From assembly GCA_001773215.1 (NCBI GenBank), contig MEWB01000001.1, forward strand, positions 151,108-215,107: DNA of 64,000 nucleotides, read 5' to 3'. Source of the DNA: a candidate division WWE3 bacterium RIFOXYC1_FULL_40_10. Lineage in GTDB: Bacteria; Patescibacteriota; WWE3; UBA101185; UBA10185. The first letter of the stretch is position 1. The number at the start of each line of letters is the position of its first letter. The notes below the pieces were generated by a model, which saw only the letters and a program-made list of their open reading frames with translations, was not told the DNA's origin and did not search any database. Shown here one piece after another: positions 7,870 through 64,000 of this stretch. The translations under genes were made by a program, and so were the position numbers.

Positions 7870-7982
7870 GGACTAAATCCAAAGGCCAAGAACACATCCA
7901 GTCCGCTTGAAGAAGAGCCTGTTAAGGGTAAAAAAACCTTTCGCAGGCTCTTTCTGTTTTATGTAGGTGTTAAAATATATGT

Positions 7983-8465: not shown

Positions 8466-8784
8466 TAAACGGTTAATGCTTACTTCCAGGACATCCCTTA
8501 AAAGGGTTACCTTGCCTGTGTGTTTTATTTTTCTTTCCCAGAACCATGTCGTTATTCGATGCTTATACGACATCTTTGTATTGAGGCAAATGCTGTAATA
8601 TCAAGCAAAAACAGTTGTACTCATGCGTCTTCTGTGTAACACACCTCTGATTTAATCTCATAGTGTGTGTTTTTGCTTTACGCTTTTGGGCTTGAGGGGT
8701 GTCACGCCGCCGCCGAGCGTTGATGAGCGTATGAGAAGAAAAAATCCGAAACCATAGGTATAATGTCTTCACATAAACATAAAT

Positions 8785-9429: not shown

Positions 9430-9503
9430 ATCAGTTTATGTGGTTTTATGCGAGTTTGTGCGTATTGGCTCACTAACCCCTTTCTATATGTGATTCTGGT
9501 TAC

Positions 9504-9749
9504 ATGGATAAGGCAGAATCAACATTATATAAGACTTCGACATTACCCCTAGCGGTATGCCTGTCCTTAATTTATCCCTTGAAATCAATTGAAAAAGGTA
9601 GCGACAGAAATCTGGTTTTTGTATTTGAAGAAACCAAGGACTTGCTTGATTCCATTGAACTTTATTGGAACAAACAGCTCCAAGTTGAACCGCAGTCATT
9701 TTTCTCCAGAATGCGGGAACTGAAAGCGAGGCTTTATGAACAGGTGTAA
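9504..9749 (+). CDS. Hypothetical small protein
   Basis: 81-aa ORF upstream of primase. Confidence 0.2.
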   Translation: MDKAESTLYKTSTLPLAVCLSLIYPLKSIEKGSDRNLVFVFEETKDLLDSIELYWNKQLQVEPQSFFSRMRELKARLYEQV

Positions 9750-9877
9750 AGTTCCGCAGGTTTCATATAAGGCGGTGGCACTTGCTCGTATTGAGGAAAA
9801 ACTGGACAAAGTTTATCAAATTATTTTCCAGCAAATGGAAAGCATGGGAATGACCCAGGAAGGCAATAAGAATAAAA

Positions 9878-12070
9878 ATGAATCAGGTGGAAACAATAAC
9901 AATTAAAGAATATCTTGATACGAAAGGCATACCATACAAAGAAAAGGGTAAAGAGCTTATAACAGCATGTGTTTTCAATAGCTGCGACAGCGACAGTCAT
10001 GCAGGTGAGGAACACTTATATTTTGATGCAGACACTTCTCAATATAAATGTTTCAAATGCGGTGAGACTGGAAATATCTTCACGCTTTGTGAGTTTTTAG
10101 GCGATGACAAGAAAACAGTAATTAAACAAAGTACTTCTGTGGGAACGGCAAGAGGCGTCAAAATTACTCTTGAGCAAATAGAAAGCTATCATAAAGCCCT
10201 ACCAGACCGCATAAAAAAATATCTTGAGGAAAAGAGAGGTATATCCACAGACTGGCAAAATACTTTTATGCTAGGGTGGGGTTCTTTTTATGGGAAAAAC
10301 TGGATAGTTATACCTTACAAGGATGCAGTAGGTAACTTTTCCTACCTAAAGCTTAGACGAGACCCTGAAACTGGTGAGGGCGAAAAGTATATGCGATTCC
10401 CAAGCGGGGCTGAATCAGCCATATACGGCATCGAAGTGTTGAGGGAAGAACAAGACTTACTTCTGATAACGGAGGGGGAGTTTGACGCTATGGTTGCAAC
10501 CATAAACGGAATCTCTGCAATATCTTTTTCTACAGGTGCGGGTAGTTACAAAAATGAAATCCGAAAACATGCGGAGCAGCTAAAGAAAATCAAGAAAATT
10601 TATGTGTGTCTGGATGCCGATATTGCGGGTATCGCCGCATCTACTGAAGTTATGAAGGAGCTTTTAGCGTTTGCACCTGATGCGGAACTTTACAGAGTAG
10701 ATTTATCGGAAAAGGTTAGGGGTGTTGGTAAAGATATTACGGATTATTTTGCTAGCTGCGGAGGTACTCCTGATGAACTTATTTATAAACTGGCAACTCG
10801 TTTTACGAAAGAAGATGTTGGGAAGGTAAACAGAATAATAACTGTACCCAAACCACAAAAAGATGTGTCGATAGAAGGTTGGAGAAATATAATTATTTCA
10901 ACTTTCCCCACCTTGCTTTTTCCTGCGGAGCTGTCTTTGTCTGTTTTAGGGCAGCTACTTATAAACGATATTAGTAATCCTTTCGGTTTGGTTTTGGTAG
11001 GTATGCCTTCTTCTGGAAAAACCATTACTCTCAACTTCTTTTCTGATGTTGACGAGCTTGTGTTTTGCTCGGACAAGTTTAGTGCAGCAGCTTTTGTTTC
11101 CAACGCTTCAAATGTTAAGGCAGAAAAGTTAGCCGAAATAGACCTTTTGCCAAAAATTCGCTACAAACTTTTTGAAGTGCGGGACTTAGCGACTCTATTT
11201 AGTAAGCGTGACGACGACTTGAATGAAGCTCTCGGTTTACTTACAAGAGTATTTGACGGTGAAGGCATTTTTACAGATTCAGGCACTCACGGACACAGGG
11301 GTTACAAAGGTGAATATCTGTTTATGTTCTTAGGTGCAACAACGCCAGTTTCACCAAGAGTATGGAAAATGATGGGCAATTTGGGTAGCCGTCTTTTCTT
11401 TTACAACATTGATAGTCCCGCAAAGACGGAATCAGAACTCATGGAGCAGATTACAACAAGCTCTTATAAGCAGAAAGAGAAGAAATGTCGTGAGGTAACA
11501 AAAGATTTTGTTTATAGTTTATGGAACGAGCATCCGAAAGGCATTACTTGGAAAAAAGAATCCGACTCGCCAAGAGCAAAAAGCCTGGTAGCAAAATCCG
11601 CCATATTTTTGGCAAGACTTAGGGGCGTGATAAACATTTGGAAGGACAGAAACGAATATTGGAGTTCGGACGAATATAACTTCACCATGCCTGTGGTTGA
11701 GCAACCAGACCGCTTAAATCAACTTTTTTACAATCTTTCAAGAGGGCATGCTGTTATTTGTGGACGAGATTACATTGATGACACCGATTTGAAGTTTGTA
11801 ATTGAGTTGGCAATACAAAGTTCTGAATATGTAAGGTCTTCAATCATGCGTGGACTTCTGAAGAATGGAGGTAGTCTCAAAACCAGCCAGGTTGAAAAGT
11901 TATTAAATTGCTCAAAGCCTACAGCATTAAAAGAAATGGAGGTGTTAAAAATACTAGGCTTATGTGACTACCGTGAAGAACTAACACTAGGATACCCTGG
12001 CAATAGTGAGAAACTTCTTGTGCTAAAAGAAGACTTTATGTGGTTACTAGAGGAACTAAAAAGAGAATAA
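9878..12070 (+). CDS. DNA primase (zf-CHC2 + TOPRIM) fused to C-terminal P-loop NTPase domain; mobile-element replication initiator
   Basis: N-terminal zinc finger CVFNSCDSDSHAGEEHLYF...YKCFKCGETGN. TOPRIM LLLITEGEFDAMVA ... CLDADIAGIAAS. Downstream Walker A GMPSSGKT. Architecture matches P4-alpha/SaPI Pri-Rep-type proteins. Confidence 0.7.
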   Translation: MNQVETITIKEYLDTKGIPYKEKGKELITACVFNSCDSDSHAGEEHLYFDADTSQYKCFKCGETGNIFTLCEFLGDDKKTVIKQSTSVGTARGVKITLEQIESYHKALPDRIKKYLEEKRGISTDWQNTFMLGWGSFYGKNWIVIPYKDAVGNFSYLKLRRDPETGEGEKYMRFPSGAESAIYGIEVLREEQDLLLITEGEFDAMVATINGISAISFSTGAGSYKNEIRKHAEQLKKIKKIYVCLDADIAGIAASTEVMKELLAFAPDAELYRVDLSEKVRGVGKDITDYFASCGGTPDELIYKLATRFTKEDVGKVNRIITVPKPQKDVSIEGWRNIIISTFPTLLFPAELSLSVLGQLLINDISNPFGLVLVGMPSSGKTITLNFFSDVDELVFCSDKFSAAAFVSNASNVKAEKLAEIDLLPKIRYKLFEVRDLATLFSKRDDDLNEALGLLTRVFDGEGIFTDSGTHGHRGYKGEYLFMFLGATTPVSPRVWKMMGNLGSRLFFYNIDSPAKTESELMEQITTSSYKQKEKKCREVTKDFVYSLWNEHPKGITWKKESDSPRAKSLVAKSAIFLARLRGVINIWKDRNEYWSSDEYNFTMPVVEQPDRLNQLFYNLSRGHAVICGRDYIDDTDLKFVIELAIQSSEYVRSSIMRGLLKNGGSLKTSQVEKLLNCSKPTALKEMEVLKILGLCDYREELTLGYPGNSEKLLVLKEDFMWLLEELKRE

Positions 12071-12154
12071 TTAAGTTATAATTACACATAGTGTCATGTA
12101 TCCTTTATCGATAAAGATAATCTGACGCTGTATCTGCCCAGAAAGAAGTATTTT

Positions 12155-13750
12155 ATGAGATTAGCTTTTTATGGCAGAGTAAGCACTCAAAGACAGGAAA
12201 AAGAAGAAACGATAGAAAACCAACTTTTGGTAGTTAAAGAAAAATTTGAGAAGGAAGGTCATGTATTTGTTAAGGATTATATCGATGAAAATTGGTCGGG
12301 GATGGTTTTGGAGAGACCTGATTTAGACCAATTAAGGCTTGATGCTGCTTCTGACTTATGGGAGGGCATTGCAATGTACGATACCGATAGATTAAGCCGC
12401 AAGTATATGCACCTGTGTATCCTACAGGAAGAGTTTGAGAAGGCAGGGAAGCAGCTATTGTTTGTTACGATTAAGACACCCGAAAATGATGAAGACCGTC
12501 TGATGTTTGGAATAAAAGGCTTGTTTAGTGAATATGAACGCTACAAAATTTCTGAAAGATTTAGATTAGGGAAGTTACGAAAGGCTCGTTCAGGGCAATT
12601 GATAATTTCACATGCACCTTTTGGGTATCGCCTCTTTAAAAAAACCGACAAAGAACATACTAGGATTGAAATAGAGCCTTACGAAGCAGAAGTAATAAAA
12701 ATGATTTTTACATGGCTTGGCGAAGAGGGTTGTAGCATCAGAGAAGTTATAAGAAGGCTTACAGATAAAGGTATACAGCCAAGAAAGAGCATGCGTAAAG
12801 TTTGGGCAACTTCCACAATAAATAACTTTATACACAACGAAACATATATGGGGACGGCATATTTTGGAAAATCTAAAGCTATAGAACCTAAAAACCCATT
12901 AAAGATTGAAAAGTATAAGCGGATAAAGAAGACTAGCCGTGTTCTTAGACCTAAAGAGGATTGGATACTAATAAAAGTTCCAACTATAATTACAGAAGAG
13001 CTATACAACAAAGTAAGAGCTAGGATGGAAGTTAACTCAAAATTTGCACCTAAGAATAAAAAACATGAGTACCTGTTAACTAGCTTGGTTGCATGTCCAT
13101 GTGGCTACAACAGAGTGGGGGAGCAAGGAAGGTATTACAGATGCAGCCAGCGTATTTATACATTTCCAGTAAAACAGTCCTGTACAGAAGGTGGTGTTGA
13201 TTCCAGCATGCTAGATTCTATGGTATGGCAGGAAATTTCTCAGCTCTTGTTGCAAAAAGACCTGATACTCGACTATTACAATAGGTGGACTGACTCGTTA
13301 AATGCTAAACACAATACTTATGAATCTCAAGTTAAGCCCTTAGAAAGAGGCTTAGACAGCTTAGAACGAGAATCTGCAAGGTATGTGAAAGCATTTGGTG
13401 CTGGATTGCTCGACTTTCAACAGTTTCAGGAGCTAAAAGTAGAGTTGGACAATAAAAGGTTATTGTTACAGGCTCAAATAAGTGTTAAAAAGTCTAGTGC
13501 AGACGAAGCGAAACGGACTCACTTAACAGAGGGAATGGTTGACACTTATTGCCAATTTGCATCAGCAGCGTTAAACGGTTTGTCATTTCAACAGAAACAA
13601 GAGATACTTAGAACGGTGGTTGAGAAGGTTACAGCCACACAAAAGGAAGCAATTATTTATGGTTACATACCCGTTAAAAAACTTAATACAAAGGAGGATA
13701 TCCTAAATGTCGAGCAGCGTCCTATCCATAGGAATCATTGGATTGCCTAA
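12155..13750 (+). CDS. Large serine recombinase (serine integrase)
   Basis: Catalytic N-terminus MRLAFYGRVSTQRQ (Y-x-R-V-S-T-x-x-Q). Recombinase domain, Cys-rich zinc ribbon CPCGYNRVGEQGRYYRCSQR and coiled-coil C-terminus. 531 aa. Confidence 0.8.
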   Translation: MRLAFYGRVSTQRQEKEETIENQLLVVKEKFEKEGHVFVKDYIDENWSGMVLERPDLDQLRLDAASDLWEGIAMYDTDRLSRKYMHLCILQEEFEKAGKQLLFVTIKTPENDEDRLMFGIKGLFSEYERYKISERFRLGKLRKARSGQLIISHAPFGYRLFKKTDKEHTRIEIEPYEAEVIKMIFTWLGEEGCSIREVIRRLTDKGIQPRKSMRKVWATSTINNFIHNETYMGTAYFGKSKAIEPKNPLKIEKYKRIKKTSRVLRPKEDWILIKVPTIITEELYNKVRARMEVNSKFAPKNKKHEYLLTSLVACPCGYNRVGEQGRYYRCSQRIYTFPVKQSCTEGGVDSSMLDSMVWQEISQLLLQKDLILDYYNRWTDSLNAKHNTYESQVKPLERGLDSLERESARYVKAFGAGLLDFQQFQELKVELDNKRLLLQAQISVKKSSADEAKRTHLTEGMVDTYCQFASAALNGLSFQQKQEILRTVVEKVTATQKEAIIYGYIPVKKLNTKEDILNVEQRPIHRNHWIA

Positions 13751-31539: not shown

Positions 31540-31586
31540 TTCACTATTATATATGGAATAAGTTTAGTGGTACAATATCTGCGTTG

Positions 31587-31674
31587 GCCGTGGTGGCGGA
31601 ATGGCAGACGCGAAGGTCTCAAAAACCTTTGTCCTTCACTGGGCATGTGAGTTCGACTCTCACCCACGGCACCA
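31587..31674 (+). tRNA. tRNA-Leu (anticodon CAA), class II with long variable arm, encoded CCA
   Basis: Acceptor GCCGTGG/CCACGGC, anticodon stem AAGGT/ACCTT with loop CTCAAAA, long variable arm, T-arm GTGAG-TTCGACT-CTCAC, discriminator A + CCA. Confidence 0.8.
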
Positions 31675-31688
31675 TAGGATTTAATTAT

Positions 31689-32243
31689 ATGAATGTTACA
31701 GACTTAAAAAACGGAACTATATATCAGGAAAATGGACAACCTCTTTTGGTTGTTAAATACGAGCATATAAAGGTGAGTAGGGGAGGGGCAACTGTAAAAG
31801 TGAAGGTCAAAAACTTGCTCACCGGGCAAGTATTGGAGAAGTCATATGTTGCTTCTGGGCATGTCGAGAGGGCAGACGTTTACAGGAAAAATGCGCAGTA
31901 CCTGTATAAGGAAGGCGAAAATTATTATTTTATGGATCCCGACAGTTTTGAGCAGTTCTTTGTTGATAAGGAAGTAATGGGGGATAGCTACCGCTTTTTA
32001 GTCGAGGGCCAAAAAGTGCAGGCACTATATTTCAATGGCAATGCAGTGTCGATGGAATTACCTATTTCCATGATATTCGAGGTTTCATACACGGAGCCCG
32101 GTTACAAAGGGAATACCGTTTCGAACGTTTTAAAAAGTGCCACACTTGATAATGGTGCTGAAGTGAGAGTTCCTATCTTTATTAAAATCGGCGATAAGGT
32201 TAAAATAGATACGAGAGATGGTTCGTACGTATCTAAAGCCTAA
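31689..32243 (+). CDS. efp: Elongation factor P
   Basis: MNVTDLKNGTIYQENGQPLLVVKYEHIKVSRGGATVKVKVKNLLTGQVLEKSY matches EF-P KOW-like N-domain. The ORF-track start at 31584 overlaps the tRNA, so the real start is ATG 31689. Confidence 0.85.
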   Translation: MNVTDLKNGTIYQENGQPLLVVKYEHIKVSRGGATVKVKVKNLLTGQVLEKSYVASGHVERADVYRKNAQYLYKEGENYYFMDPDSFEQFFVDKEVMGDSYRFLVEGQKVQALYFNGNAVSMELPISMIFEVSYTEPGYKGNTVSNVLKSATLDNGAEVRVPIFIKIGDKVKIDTRDGSYVSKA

Positions 32244-34273: not shown

Positions 34274-35320
34274 GTGATGTCAGCTGCTGCCCGAAAGAAA
34301 TTGAAAAAAAGAATAGTTAAGTTGAAGAGAGCGGTGCTTGGAAGAGCCGCTAAAAAGAGAGTTGTGAAGTACTCTACACTACTAATTCTTGTAGGACTAT
34401 CGTGTTTATTCCTAGCGCTATCCTCAATATATAAGTATTTAAATCAAAATTATGCATGGGCTGTAGAGAAGTCGTCCTATCCAACTGGCACCGGTACTGT
34501 TACAATGGCCTACGCTGTTAAGGACGGGGAAAGACTTAATGAAATCAGATACATAATATTCGATAAGAGTAACCAACGGGTGTTTATCTATGATATGTCT
34601 CCCGATATGGTGTTCGATGTTCCCGGTGGGTTTGGCTATGAAAAAATCGGAACTTTACCTTTGCTTGCCACTTTAAAAGGAGAGAACTCCGAGGAAAAGT
34701 TAACAGAGTTATTAAGAAACACGTTGCTTGGAATATTTTCCTATAATGTTGATCACTATATTGTGGTCCAGAATAAAGTGAGCGTGGAATTTAATCGGTT
34801 TTTTATCGAAGGAAACAGTTTGAAAGCGCTGAATCCTGCATTTATACATGATGTACGGAGCAGTGTGAGTACGGATCTTACTTTAAAAGACTTGTATGAG
34901 TTTTCGACATTGATAAATGGGTTGCCGGAGGATAGGGTATACAAGATAGCTGTAGACGGTTCCGGTGCAATTTTGGAAGAGATGAGTGATCTTTCTATGG
35001 ATTCTGTTCTAGCCAGGGAAAGAAAGAGCATCGCGGTATTGAACGGTACTCCATTGTCGGGAATAGCAGGCCGCACAGCCAAAATAGTTGAAAACATGGG
35101 TGGTAGCGTAATTGCAGTCGGGAATACAGTAAGGAAATTCGAAACGAGCAGCTTAATAGTTGACGACTTGGATTCAGCCAGTGCTTTGTTTTTGAAACAG
35201 GTTTTTGGTATTTCGGTAGTGGAGTCAAAGGATACAACTCAGTTATATGATGTTAGCGAGGTAGACAGGGCGGATATGACACTAATTATTGGTGTTGACA
35301 TCGCTAACAAGCTGTATTAA
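34274..35320 (+). CDS. LytR-CpsA-Psr (LCP)-family cell-envelope protein with LytR_C-like C-terminal domain
   Basis: N-terminal TM anchor. Central ...IYDMSPDMVFDVPGGFGYEKIGTL... similar to LCP core. C-terminal IAVLNGTPLSGIAGRTAKIVENMGGSVIAVGN like LytR_C. Confidence 0.5.
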   Translation: MMSAAARKKLKKRIVKLKRAVLGRAAKKRVVKYSTLLILVGLSCLFLALSSIYKYLNQNYAWAVEKSSYPTGTGTVTMAYAVKDGERLNEIRYIIFDKSNQRVFIYDMSPDMVFDVPGGFGYEKIGTLPLLATLKGENSEEKLTELLRNTLLGIFSYNVDHYIVVQNKVSVEFNRFFIEGNSLKALNPAFIHDVRSSVSTDLTLKDLYEFSTLINGLPEDRVYKIAVDGSGAILEEMSDLSMDSVLARERKSIAVLNGTPLSGIAGRTAKIVENMGGSVIAVGNTVRKFETSSLIVDDLDSASALFLKQVFGISVVESKDTTQLYDVSEVDRADMTLIIGVDIANKLY

Positions 35321-35346
35321 AATACACCTGTACTCTCTCCTTTCTA

Positions 35347-35380
35347 CCCCCGCTCCAAATTAGGGCGGGGGTTTTATTTG
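35347..35380 (+). terminator. Rho-independent terminator after LCP gene
   Basis: CCCCCGC-tccaaattagg-GCGGGGG followed by TTTTATTTGTTTT. Confidence 0.55.
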
Positions 35381-35387
35381 TTTTAAA

Positions 35388-37907
35388 ATGAATACACAAT
35401 ACTTAGTAATATTAGGCACAGTAGCAGTCATTTTAATCTTCATAATTATTAAGAAGCTAAGATCTGTTGATAAAACCGATTTCGGAAAGGTTGAGATGGG
35501 TGACTTTGAGGTATTGGAAATACAGCTGAGTAGGGATACGGAAGAGAAAGGTGAGGCACAGGCCCCGGCACTGCTTGTGGAAAATATGTTTTCAGCACTA
35601 CACGGACTATTAAGATCGGATCCCACAGTGCAGGAACACTTTTCGTTTGAGATTGCGGCCTCAGGAGATACAGGTGTTAGGTTTTACGTTGCTGTGCCCA
35701 GAAATATCATGAAATTTGTCGAGAGTCAGATATATGCACAGTTACCTGATTCTCGTATCGAAGTTGTCACTGACTATACCAAGGAGCTGTTACCTACCAA
35801 AGAAAATTATCAAACTTCCCTTTTAAAACTGGGAAAGCCATCTTTTTTCCCCATAAGAAGCTTCAGAGAATTCGAGGTTGATCCCTTGGCTTCACTAATT
35901 GCTTCTATTTCTTCTCTAAGTGTAGATGAAAAGGTTTGGATACAGGTTGTGGTAAGGCCTTTGGCAGATGTATGGCAAAAAGAAGGCATGACATATGTTA
36001 ATACTATCCGAGAAGGAAGAGTTTACGGATCTAACCCCTCACCCGTTGGAACAGCAGTTGGGGCTCTAAAAAAAGAGTTTGGAGCAATTTTAATAGGTGC
36101 GTTGATAGGTTTGATCTCACCTCCAAAATCGGAATTTGAATCCGGTAAGGGAGCGCCCAAACCCGTTTTGCCTCCTCGGCTTTCAGCTTCTCAGGAACTT
36201 GATTTAAGGGCAATCGAGAATAAATTGTCTCGAATGGGCTTTTACGTCTCAGTTAGAGTCCTGGCTTCTTGCGGAAGTAATGAAAAGGTGGACAGCCGGT
36301 TAAGGGCCGTTCTAGCGTCACTAAACCAGTTTAGTATAGCCAATTTAAATGGGTTTGTTGCAGAAATAGACAAAGATCACGCGCAATCCTTTAGGGACTA
36401 TACAAATAGGGTGATATCTTATCCCGAAAGCTTCATCTTAAGCACAGAGGAATTAGCCTCGGTTTATCATTATCCCTCCGGAAGTTTTGAAGCGCCGAAC
36501 ATTTCATGGGTATACTCCAAAAGTTCGGAGCCGCCAAGCAATCTTCCTACTGAAGACTGTGTATACATAGGAGAAACTATGTTTAGGAATAAAAAAGTCA
36601 AATTTGGCATTAAAAATGGGGATGACAGACTAAGACATATGTATCTAATAGGAAAGTCGGGTACTGGGAAGTCCACTCTTATATATACTATGGCTTGTCA
36701 GGATATCAAGAATGGCGCCGGGGTAGGTGTGCTCGATCCTCACGGTGAGACTATCGAAAGTATATTAGAGAGGATACCTGATAACAGAATTGATGATGTT
36801 GTTATAGTAGATCCTTCAGATTCTGAGCGGCCTGTTGGATTGAACCTGCTTGAAATGGAGGATCCAAGTCAGAAGAATCTTATGGCTTCGGGTTTGGTGG
36901 CCGCAATTAAACAACACTTTGAATATTCCTGGGGTCCCCGTTTGGAATACCTGCTAAACTATGCCATATTGACACTGTTAGACGTGCCGGGAACTTCGAT
37001 ACTAGGTATTACCAGACTATTAGAAGATCAAAATTACCAAAGATATATACTTCATCAGGTTAAAGATCCTGTGGTAGTGAGGTTTTGGGAAAAGGAGTAC
37101 AAAGAGATAAAGGGAAATCAAAAATTTGCTACCGAAGCTATAGCACCAATACAAAACAAGGTGAATAGATTTCTTGCTTCCAGTACCATTAGGGACATTC
37201 TCGGCCAGAAGAATTCTACAATTAACATTTGGGATATAATGAATTCGGGAAAAATTTTGTTAATTAACCTTTCAAAGGGGAAAATTGGCTCAGATAATGC
37301 AAATTTGCTGGGAGCTCTATTGGTTTCAAGAATCCAATTTTATGCCCTCCAACGCGCCAGGATACCTTACGAAAAAAGAACACCCTTCTATTTATATGTT
37401 GATGAATTCCAGAACTTTGCATCAGGTAGTTTTGGTGAGATCCTTTCGGAGTCGAGGAAATACAAATTAGGTTTATACCTTACCCATCAGTACACCGAGC
37501 AGCTACCTGAAGAATTGTTGCATGCTGTATATGGCAATGTAGGTACTTTACTTGCATTTTCGCTTGGTGCGCCAGATGCCAAAGCTCTAGAGCATGAGTT
37601 TGCGCCTTACTTTACTCAAGAGGACATTCTATCCTTAGAAAGATTCCAAGTTTATATTAAGTTAATGATTGATGGTATGACATCACACCCGTTTTCGGGT
37701 AGGATTCTAATTCCATGGTCGGATGAGTTACTAGGTACTATGATTCCAAAAACTCCCAATAGGGAACGTGTATTAGAGTTGAGCCGCCAAAAGTATGGAT
37801 CGGATAGAGCCACTGTGGAGGCCAAAATTGGCAAGTGGGTCGAAACACCATTCGATAAAGGTATGGCAATCGCCCAGGAGAAAAGGACTCCTGATATGGT
37901 AAAATAA
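35388..37907 (+). CDS. Membrane-anchored VirB4/HerA/FtsK-superfamily P-loop ATPase (DUF87/AAA_10-like)
   Basis: N-terminal TM. Walker A YLIGKSGTGKSTLIY about residue 420. Walker B LYVDEFQNF. Downstream SESRKYKLGLYLTHQ arginine-finger/sensor block characteristic of HerA/VirB4/TraD clade. 839 aa with Walker A mid-protein as in VirB4. Confidence 0.55.
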   Translation: MNTQYLVILGTVAVILIFIIIKKLRSVDKTDFGKVEMGDFEVLEIQLSRDTEEKGEAQAPALLVENMFSALHGLLRSDPTVQEHFSFEIAASGDTGVRFYVAVPRNIMKFVESQIYAQLPDSRIEVVTDYTKELLPTKENYQTSLLKLGKPSFFPIRSFREFEVDPLASLIASISSLSVDEKVWIQVVVRPLADVWQKEGMTYVNTIREGRVYGSNPSPVGTAVGALKKEFGAILIGALIGLISPPKSEFESGKGAPKPVLPPRLSASQELDLRAIENKLSRMGFYVSVRVLASCGSNEKVDSRLRAVLASLNQFSIANLNGFVAEIDKDHAQSFRDYTNRVISYPESFILSTEELASVYHYPSGSFEAPNISWVYSKSSEPPSNLPTEDCVYIGETMFRNKKVKFGIKNGDDRLRHMYLIGKSGTGKSTLIYTMACQDIKNGAGVGVLDPHGETIESILERIPDNRIDDVVIVDPSDSERPVGLNLLEMEDPSQKNLMASGLVAAIKQHFEYSWGPRLEYLLNYAILTLLDVPGTSILGITRLLEDQNYQRYILHQVKDPVVVRFWEKEYKEIKGNQKFATEAIAPIQNKVNRFLASSTIRDILGQKNSTINIWDIMNSGKILLINLSKGKIGSDNANLLGALLVSRIQFYALQRARIPYEKRTPFYLYVDEFQNFASGSFGEILSESRKYKLGLYLTHQYTEQLPEELLHAVYGNVGTLLAFSLGAPDAKALEHEFAPYFTQEDILSLERFQVYIKLMIDGMTSHPFSGRILIPWSDELLGTMIPKTPNRERVLELSRQKYGSDRATVEAKIGKWVETPFDKGMAIAQEKRTPDMVK

Positions 37908-37912
37908 CTTTT

Positions 37913-38602
37913 ATGCAAGATAACGAACCACAAGAACTAAAAAGTTTCGAGAGAGTAAGACAGATACTTTGGGATCTTCAAAAAGATATCACCAAAGCAT
38001 TGGACGCAGTAAAGAGAATTGAGGAGGAAGAGAAAAGAAAGTACTATCAAACCATACCCGGAGTGGAAGGGGAGTTTGACGGAGAGTTTCTTGTGGACTC
38101 TTCCGGAAAAAAGCATGACGTTCCAAATAATTATTCAGCCAAATCTAGATTAGTGCATGGCGATCAGCTAAAAAGAATTGAGGACAATGAAGGTGTGGTA
38201 TATAAGCAAATTCATAAGGTAGACAGAGATAAAATAAAGGGAGTTTTGAACAAGAAAGAAGGTCAGTGGTATGTTTTAACTGACAAAGGAACGTTTAAGA
38301 TTTCCGACACTGCTGCTGAGTTCAATCACGCCGAAGTAAATGATGAGGCTGTGGCAATTATTCCAAGAGATAATCATAATGTCCCTTTTGCCGCCCTAGA
38401 TAGAGTTTTTAAGCCGGCAGGATCTCCCGCCACAGCTCCTATAAAGATCGAAAAGGTTGAGGTAAAGCTTTCCAAGCCAAAAAGTGAAAAAAAGCCTGAG
38501 CCCAAGAAAGCTGCTGCACCAGCGCCAAAGCCCGCAGAAAAAAGACCAATAAACAAAGAATTCGTTGCCGATATTTCGTTGGCTGATGATGATCTAAGGT
38601 AA
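37913..38602 (+). CDS. Hypothetical protein with K/A/P-rich C-terminal tail
   Basis: 229-aa ORF 6 nt downstream of ATPase gene. C-terminus KPKSEKKPEPKKAAAPAPKPAEKRP. Confidence 0.3.
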   Translation: MQDNEPQELKSFERVRQILWDLQKDITKALDAVKRIEEEEKRKYYQTIPGVEGEFDGEFLVDSSGKKHDVPNNYSAKSRLVHGDQLKRIEDNEGVVYKQIHKVDRDKIKGVLNKKEGQWYVLTDKGTFKISDTAAEFNHAEVNDEAVAIIPRDNHNVPFAALDRVFKPAGSPATAPIKIEKVEVKLSKPKSEKKPEPKKAAAPAPKPAEKRPINKEFVADISLADDDLR

Positions 38603-38610: not shown

Positions 38611-39333
38611 CTACTGAGCTACTTCGCTTCCCTCGGGGGGAGTTTCCTCGTCGTCTAAGGTTCCTTTTTTGATATAAGGCCTGATTTCCTGCCTCCCTGA
38701 TCTAAAAACAGGTATTGTAGATCGTAGTAGTATAGTTATCATCTTCTCTTCCCCTTTTACAAAAGCAGCAGTGAATTTTCCGTCCATATCCGATGCTTCG
38801 TTTGCGCGTCTTACAACTTCGGGATTGTCAATCATTCCAACAGAAACCTTTGTTCCTTTTCGGATCTTTATAAGCTCTAACGATTTCTTCTTAACTCTAA
38901 TGTAAAGTTCCTCTCCCGGAGCAAATTCCCTAGCGGTTATGCCTTTTGCAGTGATTATACCAATACATTCGGTGCATTTACCGGGTTCCATCAGCAATGA
39001 TCGCGTGTTTACAGCCTCGTTTGTTTTTGCATCTGTCTGGTGGTTTTTGGCCAAATCTAAGTTTTTCAAGGCAACCGAGTTAATGGGATCCTTATCTAAC
39101 ACTTCTTTGAATACCTTGGTAGCCTTGGGGAATTGCCTAGTTTGGATCAATGCTCTACCCAATCTAAGTTTGGTGGCAATGTCGTTAGGGTACAGTGAGA
39201 GTATTTCTGAATTGAGTTCTACAGCCGAATCCCACTCGGCCTTAAGGGCAGCATCGATCGCTTTTTTAGAAAGTGATGAAAGCGTATGTTGCATAAGTGT
39301 AGATGATAAAGGAATATTAATTTTTGTCAACAA
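38611..39333 (-). CDS. Hypothetical protein with N-terminal TPR-like helical repeats
   Basis: N-terminal about 110 aa resemble TPR-like helical repeats (…ILSLYPNDIATKLRLGRALIQTRQFPKATKVFKEVLDKDP…). Rest unassigned. Confidence 0.3.
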   Translation of the reverse strand: MLTKINIPLSSTLMQHTLSSLSKKAIDAALKAEWDSAVELNSEILSLYPNDIATKLRLGRALIQTRQFPKATKVFKEVLDKDPINSVALKNLDLAKNHQTDAKTNEAVNTRSLLMEPGKCTECIGIITAKGITAREFAPGEELYIRVKKKSLELIKIRKGTKVSVGMIDNPEVVRRANEASDMDGKFTAAFVKGEEKMITILLRSTIPVFRSGRQEIRPYIKKGTLDDEETPPEGSEVAQ

Positions 39334-52394: not shown

Positions 52395-53184
52395 GCGATA
52401 TTGGAATTTTTTTAAAAAGATTTTCGAGATGCAGGCTATGCAAAACGCCGAGTATCGGGCAGACATGATAATGGTTTTTTTAGCCTCTTGGGGCTATATG
52501 GTTATGAGCCTGGTCTTTTTGTTTGTGTTTTTTGGAAATGTTACAGAAATAGGGGGTTGGAATAAATACGAAACTATTACCTTATTTGCGGTCGGTCAAC
52601 TTGTTTTTTATTTAAATTGGTCGTTTTTTGGAAGTGTGAGTGAAGCTGTTGGTAAGTTTATTCAGGAAGGTTCTTTGGATAGGTTTTTACTCTACCCTCT
52701 TAATGCCCTATATAATATTTCGGTTTGTAGCCCGGATTTTATTGTCACCATTCCTTCTTTTATTTTTACAGGGGCCGTTCTAGTATGGGGATACATTCAT
52801 TTGGAGTCGGAAACAGGGTTGGCCGGTATGATCCTGTGTGTGTTACTAATGATAGTGGGTTGCCTGCAGGTGACTTTTTATAACTTATGCATCAGTTTAT
52901 TGTCTTTTTGGTTAACTGATGTGCGATCAATCCACCGAGTTAGAATTCGACTTCAGGATTTGTATAAATTTCCCCGAGATATTTACCCCCAAGGCTCCAT
53001 AAGGGCAATTTTTACCTATGTGATTCCAATTGCTCTTACAGCCTATGTTCCGGCGTATGTGCTTGTTAAGGGATTTGATTTGTCACTTATCCTAGTATAT
53101 TTGTTTGTTACTGTAATGCTGTTTGGTTTGACACTATTGCTTTGGGGTATGGGGAAAAAAGTTTATTCGAGTGTTAGCAGCTAG
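52375..53184 (+). CDS. ABC-2-family transporter permease (pair B')
   Basis: Paralog of 49853..50650. Overlaps A' stop. Confidence 0.5.
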   Translation: MKLLEIKRYWNFFKKIFEMQAMQNAEYRADMIMVFLASWGYMVMSLVFLFVFFGNVTEIGGWNKYETITLFAVGQLVFYLNWSFFGSVSEAVGKFIQEGSLDRFLLYPLNALYNISVCSPDFIVTIPSFIFTGAVLVWGYIHLESETGLAGMILCVLLMIVGCLQVTFYNLCISLLSFWLTDVRSIHRVRIRLQDLYKFPRDIYPQGSIRAIFTYVIPIALTAYVPAYVLVKGFDLSLILVYLFVTVMLFGLTLLLWGMGKKVYSSVSS

Positions 53185-55601
53185 TATTTGATACCAAACC
53201 ATCCCAACATTGTTTGCCACAACGGTTTTTTAACTTGTTCATCTTTGGTTTGTATGCCTTGAACCTGAGGTTTGAGTTCTTCCTTAGTGTAACTAACTTG
53301 ACGCTGCTCTTCGGGATTGTTTGCCGGTCCGAGAGATTGTGTGGCTATGCCAAGAGATTGTGGGAAAGATGTGGCTGTTGGATCAATATTTAAGTTAAAC
53401 GCCAAAGCACTTTTATTTCCGGCTTTATCTTCCGAGGTTATTAGTATTTCATGTTTTCCAACACCTAAACTAGTTGGATTTAGGTTGAATTCTCCCGTTT
53501 CCTCGTTGACCGTTATTTTTCCGTCCACATTTATATCAAGAATAGCGCTTTTCTCGGTGTGTCCTATAATAGTGGGATTTTGCTCAGTATAGAAATAATC
53601 CTTGTATATCTCAAAGTTTGGTTCAAAAGTACCAATTTTCGAAATAGAAAGGTTCGGGGGTGTGGTATCCACTTTTATTAGCTGTTCAAACGTATCCGAT
53701 TCATTACCGGCCCGATCTTTTAGTCTTATGTACAATCTCTTCTTTTCGTCCCCAGAAGATAAATGTATCCACATATCGCTGTCGTACTCCTGCCAGTTAG
53801 CATCACTAAAGTCTTGGTGCTGAGCTATCTTAATATATTTCGCTTTTGTGGTATTGTTTGATGTATCAAAGTAAAGCTTTATTCTGTGTTGGTTAGTATA
53901 AATTGTAGTATCCCCCACTTCATACCTATCTTGCTTATTTAGTCCCAGTTCCAGTTCCGAATCTAATTTATTAGGATAGAGGGCGAATAAGTTGGTAGGC
54001 ATATAAACGGTATTCTGGTCATAAGATCTGACATAGATTGTTCCTATGTTATCCCCTAGCGAAGAAACATCGCATGTAAATTTTTCGGTTCCCGAATCGA
54101 AAGTTCCATCGTCAGCAGTACAGGCAGTCCACGCACCGTACGTAGTGTTTGACGTATTCCACTGAATTCCTGAAACGGTAAAAGCCACATTTGTATCAGT
54201 TGCTGTTCCGGTTAATCTACCTGTTTCTATAACATCATTATTACTCAAATCTATTGTAGGGGTACCGTGAGTTACACTGTATAGATAGAGTTTCGCTTTA
54301 GACGCCCCAGCCGAATACCCATACGCAACGACGCCAAAATCGCCCCAGCCATCGCCTTCAAAATCCCCAACATCGATTGGTATTGAGTATCTATCTAGAT
54401 TAGATTGTCCCAAGTTTGTCCAAAAGGGAGATGCCGGAGAAGATGTTCCCCCTTGATATAGATATACTTTCCCTTTGCGGGCGTTAGAAGCATAACCCCA
54501 GGCTCCTATAAGCATTTCGCCATACCCATCGTTATCTAGATCTCCGATTCCTAAGGCATGTCGGCCATAGCCATCAGCGGCATTTTCTTGGGTGTAGGTG
54601 CGTTCGAGTGTGGAAAGATCAGTTGATTTGTAAAGCCTAAATGAGGTTTCGCCTGTTCCTGTGGCAAGTATTCCGTCTGTGCCGTGGCCAAAAAAGTCTC
54701 TTGCCTTATTAACAAGCCAGGTATATATAGCCCCCGCAGAAGGGCCAAAATACCTAGCATCCCTTGATAGCACCCCTGACGAGTTCCCATAAAAAACTCC
54801 CAATGCACCCGCATTTGAATACAAGGTACCGTCATAAGGTTGGCCAATAACTATGTCAGGGTACGCGTCTTCGTTGGCATTAGTTATCTGTAACTCCCCG
54901 TAGGAACCACTAAAGCTACCTACCTCTGGAAAAACATAGGTTGACGAAGGAGATTGGAAATTTTGAATAGGCCCTAGGTATAAAGATAATCTTCCCGTAA
55001 GGGTTGGGTTTGTATAGCTTCTAGAAAAACCAATTATATCGAGATTGCCATCCATGTTGAAGTCGAGCACTTTGTTTGCATAACCTAAGCTATCCATCTT
55101 GCCAAACTCCCCCTGCAGTATTGCGTCTATGCCATTCAAAAGGCTGTCTCCGCCATAGTATATCTCTATTCTTCCCTGAGCTCCGGTGGTCTGATTTCCG
55201 TACCAAGGATTGCCCACAATAAGATCATCTACGCCATCCTTATTTAGATCTCCCTTATCTATTTCGTATCCCATGTTAAAGTCCCCAAGAACTCCTGTGA
55301 CTGTTGCCGTAGGAGAAGTGGCTAGTGTACCGTTTGAGGAAGTTTGGAAATAGTATAGCTTTCCCCTGTTACTACTTGCTGTGGGGTCGGCTAGTACAAA
55401 GTCTATATAGCCATCCCCATTGAAGTCCCCCGCTATGTCGTAGGAAATATACCAGCTAAAATTGGATCCGGCAGATGGTAATAAAGGCCCTGCAGACTGT
55501 TTGAGTTCAATACTTGGAGTTGCCAAAGAGTTAGTATTTACCAGAAAAATGGCAAGAACAGCTACAACACATTTAAGACAGGGTTTTAAATTACACTTCA
55601 C
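53181..55601 (-). CDS. Secreted FG-GAP/integrin-alpha-like repeat protein with C-terminal Ig-like domains
   Basis: Signal peptide. Repeated Ca-binding loops DFNGDGYIDFV, DLNKDGVDDLIVG, DFNMDGNLDIIG, DLDNDGYGEMLIG, DFEGDGWGDFGV. C-terminal block ...WTACTADDGTFDSGTEKFTCDVSS...RSYDQNTVYMP... shared with the 62070 gene. Confidence 0.65.
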   Translation of the reverse strand: MKCNLKPCLKCVVAVLAIFLVNTNSLATPSIELKQSAGPLLPSAGSNFSWYISYDIAGDFNGDGYIDFVLADPTASSNRGKLYYFQTSSNGTLATSPTATVTGVLGDFNMGYEIDKGDLNKDGVDDLIVGNPWYGNQTTGAQGRIEIYYGGDSLLNGIDAILQGEFGKMDSLGYANKVLDFNMDGNLDIIGFSRSYTNPTLTGRLSLYLGPIQNFQSPSSTYVFPEVGSFSGSYGELQITNANEDAYPDIVIGQPYDGTLYSNAGALGVFYGNSSGVLSRDARYFGPSAGAIYTWLVNKARDFFGHGTDGILATGTGETSFRLYKSTDLSTLERTYTQENAADGYGRHALGIGDLDNDGYGEMLIGAWGYASNARKGKVYLYQGGTSSPASPFWTNLGQSNLDRYSIPIDVGDFEGDGWGDFGVVAYGYSAGASKAKLYLYSVTHGTPTIDLSNNDVIETGRLTGTATDTNVAFTVSGIQWNTSNTTYGAWTACTADDGTFDSGTEKFTCDVSSLGDNIGTIYVRSYDQNTVYMPTNLFALYPNKLDSELELGLNKQDRYEVGDTTIYTNQHRIKLYFDTSNNTTKAKYIKIAQHQDFSDANWQEYDSDMWIHLSSGDEKKRLYIRLKDRAGNESDTFEQLIKVDTTPPNLSISKIGTFEPNFEIYKDYFYTEQNPTIIGHTEKSAILDINVDGKITVNEETGEFNLNPTSLGVGKHEILITSEDKAGNKSALAFNLNIDPTATSFPQSLGIATQSLGPANNPEEQRQVSYTKEELKPQVQGIQTKDEQVKKPLWQTMLGWFGIKY

Positions 55602-61376: not shown

Positions 61377-62004
61377 GAGCTGCTCCAACGCTAGAGCAGC
61401 TCCAAAGGCGGAGCTACTCCTGTAGGAATGGAAATTACTCTCTTCCCCTTTCCCTAAAATCTAGATATACAGGTATATATGCCTGCGATTAACTCCTTAA
61501 AAAAATACGTTCAAGGTGGAATTTATCATGTATACAACAGGGGAAATCGGAAAAGTGAAATTTTTTTAGCGGCTCAGGACTATGATATTTTCTGTTATTT
61601 ATTGGAAAGATATTTACTCCCATGTCCTGTTTCTATGAGATGCAAGAGCTACTCTAACCAGATTAAAGTACACGCTTTTTGTTTGATGCCCAATCACTTT
61701 CATCTACTGCTAGAGCAGATCCAAGAGAGGGCTATATCCAGCTTCATGCACGGTCTTTGTCTGAGTTATTCTATGATATTTAACAAACGGTATGAGAAGG
61801 TTGGCAGACTGTTTCAAGGAGTGTACAAAGCACGTCTTATCACAAGAGAATCCGAGATAAGCACCGTGGCATCTTACATACACATCAACCCTTCCGAAGT
61901 AGGAGCTACTCCGGAGGATTACCCCTATTCTAGTTATGGTTGTTATCTAGGGAAAGACACGTGTAGATTTCTAACGACGGAGCTGCTCCAACGCTAGAGC
62001 AGCT
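61377..62004 (+). mobile_element. IS200-like / REP-associated tyrosine transposase (RAYT) element bounded by identical 27-bp hairpin sequences
   Basis: GGAGCTGCTCCAACGCTAGAGCAGCTC present at 61377-61403 and 61978-62004 in the same orientation. Each forms a 9-bp stem (GAGCTGCTC/GAGCAGCTC) with 8-nt loop. Additional nested palindromes at both ends. Confidence 0.7.
61479..61997 (+). CDS. tnpA: HUH-family Y1 transposase (IS200 TnpA / RAYT)
   Basis: YHVYNRGNRKSEIF (N-terminal beta-strand block), HUH motif CLMPNHFHLLLE, C-terminal catalytic Tyr region GVYKARLI...YPYSSYGCY. 172 aa. Confidence 0.75.
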   Translation: MPAINSLKKYVQGGIYHVYNRGNRKSEIFLAAQDYDIFCYLLERYLLPCPVSMRCKSYSNQIKVHAFCLMPNHFHLLLEQIQERAISSFMHGLCLSYSMIFNKRYEKVGRLFQGVYKARLITRESEISTVASYIHINPSEVGATPEDYPYSSYGCYLGKDTCRFLTTELLQR

Positions 62005-62069: not shown

Positions 62070-64000
62070 ATGCCTGTAATTAGATATAACCTGCTTTTTT
62101 TAATTACTCTCCTGTGCATTTTGTGTCCTGTTGCATTTGCAACTCCTTCGCTAACTTTAAAGGGCACTGCAACGGATGGTACTTCTAATACCCCATACGC
62201 CTCCAGAGTATACTTTGGTGACTATAACGGGGACGGGTACGACGATTATGCTACTTCAAACGGCCAGACTGGTAATGGCAAGGTCTACATCTATTTTGGC
62301 GGACTTCTCTTTGATAATACAGTTGATATCACAATTACGGGTGAGGCCGCCAGCGATTTTTTTGGAAGTCAGGAGGATGGTATCTCTTTGGTTGATTTAA
62401 ACGGAGACGGGAGTGACGAGTTAATAGTGGGAGCTCCTTATAACGATGCGGGAGGAAGTAATGTTGGGAAAATTTACATCTATACTGGTGGTGTTTTAAG
62501 CAGTGGTACCTATGCGGCCAGCGTGGCGAATACTACGCTTGTAGGTAATTTAACCGACAGGAGACAACTTGGTAGGTCGGTATCTTATGGCGATGCGGAT
62601 AATGATGGTGATATGGATTTACTTATTGGATCCATAGCAGAGTCTCAGGCGGTCTCCAAACTTCATATATTTACGAATTCATCAGGAGTGGTGGATTTTT
62701 CAGCTAGTTGGGCGATACTTTCGCTGGCGGGCTCCACTGCATATAGTGTATTTAGCAGAGCTATGGCGTACGACTTCAATGATGACAGTTTCAACGATAT
62801 ATTAGTGTCTGATGGTTGGGGGTATTCCTATACAGGGAAAGACCTCAACATTAGTTTTGGGGATGGCACAACAGCTTTTGGAACTACAACATCGTTTCCC
62901 GAGAGTTCCTCAGCCAGTGCCTATGGCCGTGCCAATTCGTACGATGTGTCGGACATCAACTTGGACGGGAAAGAGGATATTTGCGCTAGCATTTACACAG
63001 GCAGTTCTAATAGGGGATCAGTATTTTGCTGGTTTGGGAGAGAGACTTTTTTATCAAGCTACGCCCAAAGTACTGCAGATATCACATTAACCGGTCCAAA
63101 TGCCGGTGACTATCTTGGAAGAGGCCTTACTATTTCAGATGTTAACAATGATGGAAAGCCGGATCTATTAGCGGGAGCAACTCAGTGGGGGGCAACAAAA
63201 AGGGGGGCTTTATATATATATAAAGGAACCGGGGAAACCTTTTCTAGTTCTCCCTGGCTTACTTATGCAAAGACTAGCGGAACCACCAGTTTCGGCGCTT
63301 CTGTGTCAACGGGAGATCTAGATAGCGATGGTTGGGTGGATATAAATGTAACGACTGGAGGCCAATGGGTAGGCGGAAGCGGGGCTTCGTATATAAATAT
63401 TTTCGAGATTGACCATGGAAATCCGACCATAAGCGTGGCTGGCGCGTCTAGCGGAAGTGAAATGGAAGGGGAAGCTATTTCCGGAGATCCCGGCTACACT
63501 GTTAAGGGAGTTGAGTGGAGTACCTCAGCCAACTTATCCGGTACATGGACCGCGTGCACGCCCAAAGATGGAACTTTCGACGAATCTACCGAGGAGTTTT
63601 CGTGCAATGTTTCCAGTTTTGAAGATGGGGAAAGCGAAATATATTTGCGATCCTATGACCAAAATGATGTGTACATGCCGGAACGGTTGATTATGCATAA
63701 AGATTTTACTTTGGACAAAGAAAGTCCCGGTGAAAGCGACCAACTAGTGGGTCTATCCAAGGATAATCTCGTGCAACTTGGTTCTAAAACGCTAAAATCT
63801 GATGACCGAGAATTAACTTTGTACTTTGATGTTAAGGATTCAACAACCGAGGTTAAGTACTTAATGCTTTCCCAAAAGGATGATTTTAAGGGTGCGAAAT
63901 GGAAGGCATATGACGGGGACATCAAACTTAGTTTTGATCACGATGGAAAGAAAAATCTATTTATTAGATTTAAAGATGATGCGGGTAATGTTTCTGATAC
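62070..64000 (+). CDS. Partial (3' end beyond window) secreted FG-GAP repeat protein, paralog of 53181..55601
   Basis: ATG at 62070 with signal peptide MPVIRYNLLFLITLLCILCPVAFA. Repeats DYNGDGYDDY, DLNGDGSDELIVG, DADNDGDMDLLIG, DINLDGKEDI, DVNNDGKPDLLAG, DLDSDGWVDI. Block SGTWTACTPKDGTFDESTEEFSCNVSS...RSYDQNDVYMP homologous to the other gene. Open to window end and not in ORF track for lack of stop. Confidence 0.6.
   Translation, partial: MPVIRYNLLFLITLLCILCPVAFATPSLTLKGTATDGTSNTPYASRVYFGDYNGDGYDDYATSNGQTGNGKVYIYFGGLLFDNTVDITITGEAASDFFGSQEDGISLVDLNGDGSDELIVGAPYNDAGGSNVGKIYIYTGGVLSSGTYAASVANTTLVGNLTDRRQLGRSVSYGDADNDGDMDLLIGSIAESQAVSKLHIFTNSSGVVDFSASWAILSLAGSTAYSVFSRAMAYDFNDDSFNDILVSDGWGYSYTGKDLNISFGDGTTAFGTTTSFPESSSASAYGRANSYDVSDINLDGKEDICASIYTGSSNRGSVFCWFGRETFLSSYAQSTADITLTGPNAGDYLGRGLTISDVNNDGKPDLLAGATQWGATKRGALYIYKGTGETFSSSPWLTYAKTSGTTSFGASVSTGDLDSDGWVDINVTTGGQWVGGSGASYINIFEIDHGNPTISVAGASSGSEMEGEAISGDPGYTVKGVEWSTSANLSGTWTACTPKDGTFDESTEEFSCNVSSFEDGESEIYLRSYDQNDVYMPERLIMHKDFTLDKESPGESDQLVGLSKDNLVQLGSKTLKSDDRELTLYFDVKDSTTEVKYLMLSQKDDFKGAKWKAYDGDIKLSFDHDGKKNLFIRFKDDAGNVSD

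Follow-up and report, generated by a model that had tools for sequence, protein, structure and literature searches.

A 64,000-nucleotide stretch of contig MEWB01000001.1 from a WWE3 bacterium (hereafter the window) encodes a membrane-anchored ATPase of the DUF8128 family that is directly followed by a small protein whose predicted fold looks like that of an OB/cold-shock-like single-stranded nucleic-acid binder. This partner is a conserved neighbour of the ATPase across lineages, is fused to it in one orthologue and is replaced by an S1 domain in five WWE3 loci, and these associations constitute the new observations of this study. Already known were DUF8128 as a Pfam family and, in Patescibacteria, unlinked homologues of type IV coupling proteins (T4CPs) (Quinonero-Coronel et al., 2025; PMC12102498). 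With confidence that stands about even, we propose that the ATPase is a membrane-anchored motor which handles single-stranded nucleic acid via an OB-fold adaptor module. The window is a segment of a WWE3 chromosome (Patescibacteria, or Candidate Phyla Radiation, CPR) with 100% identity to a 146-kb ENA contig, and its genes recur on a 673-kb contig.

The partner protein

The two open reading frames lie where the preliminary description of this DNA had placed them, with the ATPase (839 amino acids) at 35388–37907 and the partner (229 amino acids) at 37913–38602, and 5 nucleotides separate the ATPase stop codon from the partner (all features are on the plus strand unless stated otherwise). Homologues of the partner number 31. 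For the ATPase, a word-indexed search gave 665 matches at E<1e-5 and an exhaustive search gave 22,780 cluster representatives at E<1e-3, including 6,032 below 1e-30. These counts demonstrate that both are real, conserved genes.

The partner is predicted to consist of a helix, tandem OB/cold-shock-like domains, a basic disordered tail and an acidic tip. The AlphaFold2 model has a predicted local distance difference test score (pLDDT) of 81 overall and above 90 in the core. It begins with a long N-terminal helix (residues 7–47; 37931–38053), continues with a β-rich core (residues 48–166; 38054–38410) in which two small OB/cold-shock-like barrels are formed from residues 51–166, and is disordered beyond. 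In the alignment of the 31 homologues the core motifs PGxEGxFDG, VPxNYAAKSRLVxGDxLK and KKEGKWY are strongly conserved, and the conserved core residues include Y74, K77, K87, K98, R105, K115 and W119. The core is followed by a basic linker rich in lysine, proline and alanine (residues 167–214; 38411–38554), predicted to be disordered from its composition, its charge and a pLDDT of about 50, and the length of this linker differs greatly between the aligned homologues. The protein ends in a conserved motif, KEFVAxI...L(E/D)DDDLR-COOH (residues 215–229; 38555–38599), with complete or almost complete invariance at D226, D227, L228 and R229. The composition of the tail that had been remarked upon earlier is borne out, as 33 of the 64 residues from 166 to 229 are K, P or A (13, 10 and 10 respectively). 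The net charge is +9 over residues 166–215 and −4 over the last 14 residues.

It had also been suggested that the downstream protein might adopt a nuclease, Sir2 or NurA-like fold. Structure prediction gave none of these and points instead to OB/cold-shock-like domains. By analogy only, the arrangement is reminiscent of the single-stranded DNA-binding protein SSB, which likewise combines OB fold(s), a variable disordered linker and an acidic tip (DDDIPF in SSB, DDDLR here), and of Rho, whose N-terminal OB module passes a strand on to a RecA-type ring. The partner differs from SSB in the basic, Lys/Pro/Ala-rich nature of its linker and in the S1/cold-shock class of its predicted OB folds. It shows no sequence or Pfam relationship to SSB, neither an SSB-type OB fold nor a match to the SSB family hidden Markov model (HMM) was found, and the two proteins are not homologous.

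Association of the ATPase with OB, S1 and TPR domains

In distant lineages a profile of the partner matches the ATPase-adjacent gene in two loci, L043 (99.9%, E 3e-33) and L045, and a tail-less version of 167–174 residues between the tandem ATPase paralogues of L040 and L041 (99.2%, E 6e-20). At the orthologous locus L047, which has the same synteny, the ATPase P0152 (1039 residues, 56% identical to the window ATPase) is a fusion that carries the partner core at residues 900–1015 (99.45%, E 5e-22). A separate partner gene is missing from five WWE3 loci (L015, L016, L017, L019 and L027), and in these the ATPase is extended by about 120 residues and has a canonical S1 domain at its C-terminus. 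Pfam recognises this domain as PF00575 in four of the five (E 1e-17 to 8e-20), and the fifth, in L027, was matched by a local HMM built from the other four. S1 fusions recur in distant members of the family (P0191, P0176, P0185 and P0229). The repeated occurrence of OB or S1 modules beside the ATPase, fused to it or in place of the partner points towards a nucleic-acid substrate.

The gene on the other side of the partner is convergent and encodes a TPR protein of 240 residues (38611–39333, minus strand; TPR_19). It is syntenic in WWE3 and in L043, L045 and L047. Its β-rich C-terminal domain is lost at three loci and the whole gene is gone at two, and these losses fall in exactly the five loci with a fused S1 domain, while the C-terminal domain is present wherever the partner or the ATPase::partner fusion is present. 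The co-occurrence of TPR loss with S1 replacement suggests a three-part module, and the TPR protein is probably its third component. TPR domains commonly clamp acidic C-terminal peptides and, by analogy, this one may bind the DDDLR tip of the partner.

The S1 domain brings RNA into consideration. The ATPase could be an RNA-directed machine, tethered to the membrane, that remodels, degrades or transports RNA recruited by S1/cold-shock-type modules, much as Rho uses its OB domain and RNase E and PNPase their S1 domains. The fused domain is indeed a canonical S1 RNA-binding domain, and an RluD-type pseudouridine synthase recurs as a neighbour in both of the genomic contexts described below. However, no RNase is linked to the locus, the neighbours include yebC-ruvC-ruvAB and xerC, and cold-shock and S1 folds also bind single-stranded DNA (ssDNA). 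On balance an RNA-directed machine appears unlikely.

Architecture of the ATPase

The ATPase contains the three features first noticed in it, namely an N-terminal transmembrane (TM) helix, a Walker A motif at mid-protein and an RKY..Q block. The TM anchor, seen by hydropathy at residues 4–22 (35397–35453), is directly followed by the sequence KKLR, and the hydropathy scan gave no second 19-residue Kyte–Doolittle window above 1.6 beyond residues ~4–22. From the positive-inside rule the topology would be N-out/C-in, with the body of the protein in the cytoplasm and tethered via the N-terminal helix. The helix is followed by the DUF8128 N-terminal α/β domain (residues ~40–360; 35505–36467), which is modelled with a pLDDT of 80–94 except for a hydrophobic/amphipathic insert at residues 219–243 (36042–36116). 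The TM helix occurs in 28 of the 41 diverse members of the family that were compared. The TM-bearing members mostly have, inside DUF8128, an insert of 40–65 residues, often hydrophobic, where those without the helix mostly have a short segment. This co-occurrence suggests that the insert is a membrane-interacting element.

The C-terminal half contains the P-loop domain, with Walker A (GKSGTGKS, residues 422–429; 36651–36674), in which G422, G425, G427 and K428 are invariant, and Walker B (YLYVDE, residues 668–673; 37389–37406), in which D672 and E673 are invariant. It continues with the RKYKLGLYLTHQ block (residues 690–701; 37455–37490), where R690, K691, Y692 and Q701 are invariant. Across the 41 members, which are only 27–54% identical, these catalytic residues do not change in Walker A, Walker B, RKY or Q701/Q705. 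The ATPase is under selection as an enzyme. Between the two Walker motifs an all-helical block is predicted at residues ~493–619 (36864–37244), from the secondary structure of a moderate-confidence model. This AlphaFold2 model, of a monomer and built from 53 input sequences, has a pLDDT of 71; the N-domain is good, residues 493–619 score 58–75 and residues 700–775 fall below 50.

With a local copy of Pfam the ATPase matches DUF87 ('HerA central domain', E 5e-9) and TrwB_AAD_bind (E 1e-4; residues 416–707, 21.6 bits against a cut-off of 20.5). PF26449 (DUF8128) was not reported by this copy, and the DUF8128 assignment comes from database protein records, in which PF26449 covers the N-terminal half of the identical protein P0001 and is present in all 120 homologues listed. 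Nearly all of those 120 listed homologues also carry PF01935 and/or PF10412, and homologues of the ATPase also match T4SS-DNA_transf and TraG-D_C. The protein thus has the composition of its family, with PF26449 in the N-terminal half and a P-loop domain of DUF87/TrwB type in the C-terminal half. A profile of 20 diverse DUF8128 N-domains found no sequence relative in the PDB.

Comparison with coupling proteins and related motors

The ATPase model is most similar to solved coupling proteins. The structural-match figures are highest for TrwB (19.5) and DotL/IcmO (19.2), followed by the DndH C-domain (17.2), VirB4 (16.7 and 16.4), Cag-β (15.9), HerA (13.9 and 13.2), TcpA (9.4) and FtsK (8.7). With TrwB and DotL/IcmO on top, the motor of the modelled protein is RecA-type and coupling-protein-like (TrwB, DotL, Cag-β), and neither VirB4 nor HerA proper. 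The preliminary description had called it VirB4/HerA-like on the basis of its motifs; its place among the P-loop ATPases of the HerA/VirB4/TraD-FtsK superfamily holds, and the narrower label does not.

The ATPase shares with TrwB of R388, VirD4, Cag-β and DotL/IcmO a RecA-like nucleotide-binding domain (NBD) containing Walker A and B, with a fold nearest that of the solved T4CPs, together with an N-terminal membrane attachment. Eight predicted helices at residues 493–619, between the Walker motifs, occupy the position of the T4CP all-alpha domain (AlphaFold2 pLDDT 58–75 there). However, where a T4CP has a two-TM domain directly on the NBD, this protein has one TM helix (residues 4–22) and then the DUF8128 domain of about 320 residues. 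It also differs in its pairing or fusion with OB/S1 modules and in its housekeeping synteny, with no linkage to a relaxase, to VirB4 or to other genes of a type IV secretion system (T4SS) either within the 64-kb window or beside the gene in more than 35 related loci. As both the two-TM N-domain and the relaxase/T4SS linkage are absent, the protein is not classed as a canonical T4CP.

VirB4, TrbE and TraC have a similar overall size, a mid-protein Walker A and an N-terminal domain ahead of the motor. Identity with VirB4/TrbE was rejected, there being no VirB4-type Pfam or NCBIfam assignment above noise and no VirB3, VirB6 or VirB8 neighbours. The DUF87 match is common to the ATPase and to HerA, as found in HerA-NurA repair and in HerA-Sir2 and HerA-DUF defence. 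Identity with HerA was likewise rejected: there is no HAS-barrel match and no nuclease or Sir2 partner, the protein is membrane-anchored, and the NCBIfam HerA model scores 18 bits against a cut-off of 970.

The ATPase also resembles FtsK in being a membrane-anchored motor of the FtsK-HerA superfamily, and its closeness to yebC-ruvC(-ruvAB) and a tyrosine recombinase is conserved in WWE3, L046 and L047. An FtsK-like translocase that would work with the RuvABC resolvasome and the neighbouring XerC-type recombinase to segregate chromosomes or resolve dimers is nevertheless quite improbable. FtsK pumps double-stranded DNA and needs no OB adaptor that binds single strands, and ftsK is mentioned in two transcriptome papers on TM7x (Saccharibacteria), going by occurrence counts of the name in those papers, so that a canonical FtsK is probably present in these bacteria. 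The protein itself has no FtsK_SpoIIIE Pfam match, no γ domain and no four-TM N-terminus. Identity with FtsK/SpoIIIE, which had been named earlier as the classification that would overturn the first interpretation, was rejected on these grounds of motor signature, multi-TM N-terminus and γ domain.

Gene order and genomic context

The gene order around the ATPase is fixed in about 25 WWE3 genomes, as found by tblastn of the window genes against 33 genome loci. It runs DnaB, EF-P, DksA-like, LspA, RluD, LytR_C, ATPase, partner, TPR (minus strand), YebC, RuvC, TM protein, XerC-like and RNase HII. In Pfam-annotated contigs the LytR_C-ATPase-(partner-TPR)-YebC-RuvC core is kept in L043, L045 and L047, the ATPases of which are 43–56% identical to that of the window. 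In L046 the ATPase is directly followed by yebC-ruvC-x-ruvA-ruvB and then by a tyrosine recombinase. Over more than 35 loci the ATPase is flanked by genes for recombination and housekeeping, and in none by T4SS genes. As the preliminary description had stated, conjugation and T4SS components are absent from the window, with no VirB4, VirB6, relaxase or other T4SS gene among the Pfam-annotated genes that cover nearly all of it. Its term 'orphan' fits the ATPase in so far as the gene is unlinked in the window, but members of this family are as a rule unlinked in Patescibacteria, as already published (PMC12102498).

A second context is found in other Patescibacteria (L040, L041, L042 and L044), where DUF8128 paralogues of about 830 and 970–1070 residues are encoded in tandem, with SecDF, a pseudouridine synthase, RmuC and AddA all on the opposite strand. 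The window protein is 41–42% identical to the long paralogue and 33–35% identical to the other, which places it with the long type. A short motif, (E/P)G(E/Q)x(V/I)x(L/F), recurs at the C-termini of the long paralogues. In L040 and L041, where the tail-less partner homologue lies between the two genes, a giant protein of more than 1,500 residues is encoded upstream of the pair, and in L040 a sigma70_r4/HARE-HTH gene is also found between the paralogues. From its synteny the ATPase is a vertically inherited gene of the chromosomal core and not part of a conjugative element, a defence island or a variable island.

These contexts bear on the proposal that the gene pair is a HerA-based anti-phage module. 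More broadly, the ATPase could be a HerA-, MADS- or Dnd-like defence ATPase with the partner as effector or sensor, and PADLOC gives weak matches to mad8 (1e-11), HerA (1e-4) and DndH (4e-3). These matches span only the shared P-loop core, however, and no nuclease, Sir2, methylase or other effector is found nearby. The partner is predicted to be an OB-fold protein, with no nuclease, Sir2 or NurA fold, and the fixed core synteny in dozens of genomes is unlike that of defence islands. The HerA-based module is thereby discarded, and a role in defence of any kind is hardly tenable.

Phages of Bacillus and Geobacillus (phage G gp156, 0305phi8-36 ORF201, TP-84 and SPO1-like phages; phrog_5156) encode full-length homologues with the same architecture of DUF8128 and ATPase. 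They share this architecture along more than 80% of their length (phrog_5156 E 2e-83; 20–23% identity by tblastn; N-domain HMM E 1e-25 to 3e-27) and differ in their phage context, where all are annotated as hypothetical. No partner homologue adjoins them, and the neighbourhoods in SP8 and TP-84 consist of uninformative hypothetical proteins. Full-length homologues also occur in Firmicute, Streptomyces and archaeal plasmids. Outside Patescibacteria there are ATPase-only homologues, about 41% identical, beside large serine recombinases, i.e. in mobile elements (L029 and L031).

Several observations accompany these distant relatives. The ATPase-only genes of L029 (Lacibacter), L031 (Arenicellales) and L032 (Bacteroidales) are divergent to the large serine recombinases. 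A Shedu SduA gene lies nearby in L029, and in L031 and L032 a second, longer paralogue is encoded 2–4 kb downstream, of which the L032 copy matches the DUF8128 N-domain profile. In L033 (Nomurabacteria; 49–7941) the architecture is ATPase-first, a T4CP-like domain being followed by a zf_Tbcl_2 treble-clef zinc finger. Two large proteins with the same zinc finger precede it, and the context is again of housekeeping genes (YceG, RNase T, MnmA and AlaRS).

Relationship to published coupling protein homologues

A survey of Patescibacteria recorded 5,713 T4CP homologues, about two per genome, of which 148 lie near virB4; no function was assigned, and exaptation 'cannot be ruled out' (Quinonero-Coronel et al., 2025; PMC12102498). 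'WWE3' is not mentioned in the supplements of that paper. The published unlinked homologues are very probably the same proteins as the DUF8128 ATPases, as judged by identical NCBI names and a common architecture in which the P-loop domain starts around residues 360–400. In Ca. Southlakia epibionticum two genes, SEML1_0142 and SEML1_0293, are T4CP-like (Wang et al., 2023; PMC10633639). Transposon sequencing of strain ML1 found SEML1_0142 and a 139-residue open reading frame upstream of it to be essential and SEML1_0293, which is five genes away from dprA (SEML1_0298), to be non-essential (PMC10633639, Table S1). The statement that the 't4cp homologue' is non-essential (PMC12102498) seems to refer to just one of the two. 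SEML1_0293 shares its upstream sigma70_r4/HARE-HTH neighbour with the long paralogue of L040, the type closest to the window protein; the apparent orthology of the SEML1 genes is based on names, domain positions and this shared neighbour. What the two papers give on these homologues is that they exist, that they are separate from virB4 and how they score in transposon sequencing. In the searchable literature no DUF8128 domain, OB-fold partner, ATPase fusion, S1 substitution, co-varying TPR protein or ruvC-proximal synteny is described.

These data allow another explanation, that the ATPase is an ordinary coupling protein, the substrate receptor of a chromosomal, relaxase-free Patescibacteria T4SS encoded elsewhere, with the partner as its adaptor or as a secreted substrate. 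Recognition of a secreted partner would rely on its disordered tail and on the acidic signal at its C-terminus; acidic (glutamate-rich) C-terminal signals are known from Dot/Icm effectors, and VirE2 is an effector that binds ssDNA. T4CPs head the structural matches, among them DotL from the Dot/Icm coupling complex, and the partner does have a conserved acidic C-terminal motif beyond its disordered linker. Among Patescibacteria genomes about 80% encode a VirB4 T4SS, and one may lie elsewhere in the present genome. Separation of T4CP genes from virB4 is frequent, and no coupling protein can be recognised in the Ca. S. epibionticum T4SS cluster (PMC10633639). Against this, just 148 of the 5,713 homologues lie near virB4 (PMC12102498), and the T4SS of Ca. 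S. epibionticum is essential while SEML1_0293 is not. The N-terminus of one TM helix and a 320-residue domain is unlike the two-TM domain of VirD4, an OB/S1 module fused to the ATPase is hard to square with a secreted substrate, and no T4SS gene adjoins the ATPase in more than 35 loci, where genes for recombination and housekeeping surround it. A conventional coupling protein is therefore considered possible but doubtful.

The region upstream of the ATPase gene

A gap of 67 nucleotides precedes the ATPase gene, and a promoter-like site, a CU-rich box and a hairpin are found within 35295–35387. The candidate promoter (35295–35323) is σ70-like, TTGACA-17-TAAAAT, and was identified by consensus match only, at 11 of 12 positions. 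It is among the two best sites (11/12) in a scan of 34–40 kb and overlaps the 3′ end of the upstream LytR_C gene. Downstream of it lies a conserved leader element (35333–35372) that consists of the CU-rich box CTCTCTCCTTTC, a GC-rich hairpin of 10 bp (35346–35372) and a T-run, and that ends 15 nucleotides ahead of the ATPase ATG. Across 11 WWE3 loci, with proteins that differ by about 40%, the box shows 100% identity, and it resembles the 3′ end of 16S rRNA (the anti-Shine–Dalgarno region). The hairpin stem covaries (CGC/GCG to CAC/GTG). The element occurs once in the window, and a comparison with Rfam gave no family at threshold and only sub-threshold small RNA matches. The T-run is lacking in some genomes, which suggests that the element is more than a simple terminator; it either terminates LytR_C or serves the ATPase gene as a 5′ regulatory leader.

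Other features of the window

Upstream of the ATPase locus, the open reading frame called for EF-P (31584–32243) has a TTG start that overlaps tRNA-Leu(CAA) (31587–31674), and the real EF-P, of 184 residues in the database gene call, starts near 31689. An apparent integrated element lies at 1967–13750 beside ychF, rpsF and ssb. It encodes a MoxR-type AAA_5 ATPase (614 residues), a VWA_CoxE protein (601 residues), a Toprim_2 primase-like protein of 730 residues, a large serine recombinase of 531 residues and several small open reading frames; many contigs contain this exact recombinase (41 index blocks). Towards the right end, two large FG-GAP repeat proteins (53181–55601, minus strand, and 62070–64000) flank four ABC2_membrane_6 permease genes and an ABC ATPase, and an IS200/IS605-type Y1 transposase gene is found at 61479–61997. 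A PilB/MshE-type T2SSE ATPase gene follows on the same contig, immediately to the right of the window.

Proposed function

In the mechanism that we propose, the OB domains and basic linker of the partner would capture single-stranded nucleic acid, and the partner would dock by its conserved acidic C-terminal tip. The strand would then be handed to the membrane-bound and probably hexameric ATPase ring, which would thread it at the membrane. The most likely role would be nucleic-acid transport coupled to recombination, whether uptake by the ComEC pathway or transfer via a separately encoded T4SS. Of the possible substrates, ssDNA is favoured by the position of the ATPase locus directly upstream of yebC-ruvC(-ruvAB) and near the Xer-type recombinase (xerC), and by the T4CP ancestry of the family.

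A number of points weigh against this proposal. The substrate, oligomeric state, direction and role are all inferred. The partner is not universal, its profile finding no match in L023, L024, L042, L044 and L046. The confidence of the ATPase model is moderate (pLDDT 71, with residues 700–775 below 50), and the DUF8128 N-terminal domain is without a recognisable relative. S1/CSD (cold-shock domain)-class OB folds are known chiefly for binding RNA; ssDNA is no more than a preference drawn from the recombination-gene neighbours, and RNA is a serious alternative. Synteny within a clade may reflect inertia rather than function. Finally, SEML1_0293, which is apparently orthologous, is non-essential, a result that fits an accessory role without identifying it.

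A more specific form of the nucleic-acid motor is put forward tentatively, as a possibility well short of the general proposal. In this form the ATPase with its OB adaptor, and the TPR protein, would be an import motor independent of any T4SS, the missing ATP-driven partner of ComEC/ComFC and a functional analogue of ComFA, pulling in ssDNA or RNA. The conserved CPR com core is given as ComEC, DprA and ComFC with no ATPase named (PMC10633639), which makes the role of an ATP motor for ComEC-dependent uptake an attractive one. In Ca. S. epibionticum comEC, like SEML1_0293, is dispensable. If the import motor is real, the strands taken up would feed recombination, in keeping with the ruvABC context, and nucleotide salvage in cells that are unable to make nucleotides.

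Patescibacteria represent a large share of bacterial diversity and are unable to synthesise nucleotides, and their genomes each encode about two coupling-protein-like ATPases that have been noted in the literature without a function. The ATPase of the window is in itself ordinary for the group. The evidence for an adaptor turns this acknowledged unknown into a concrete, testable hypothesis, and the question is approachable in the genetically tractable Saccharibacteria.

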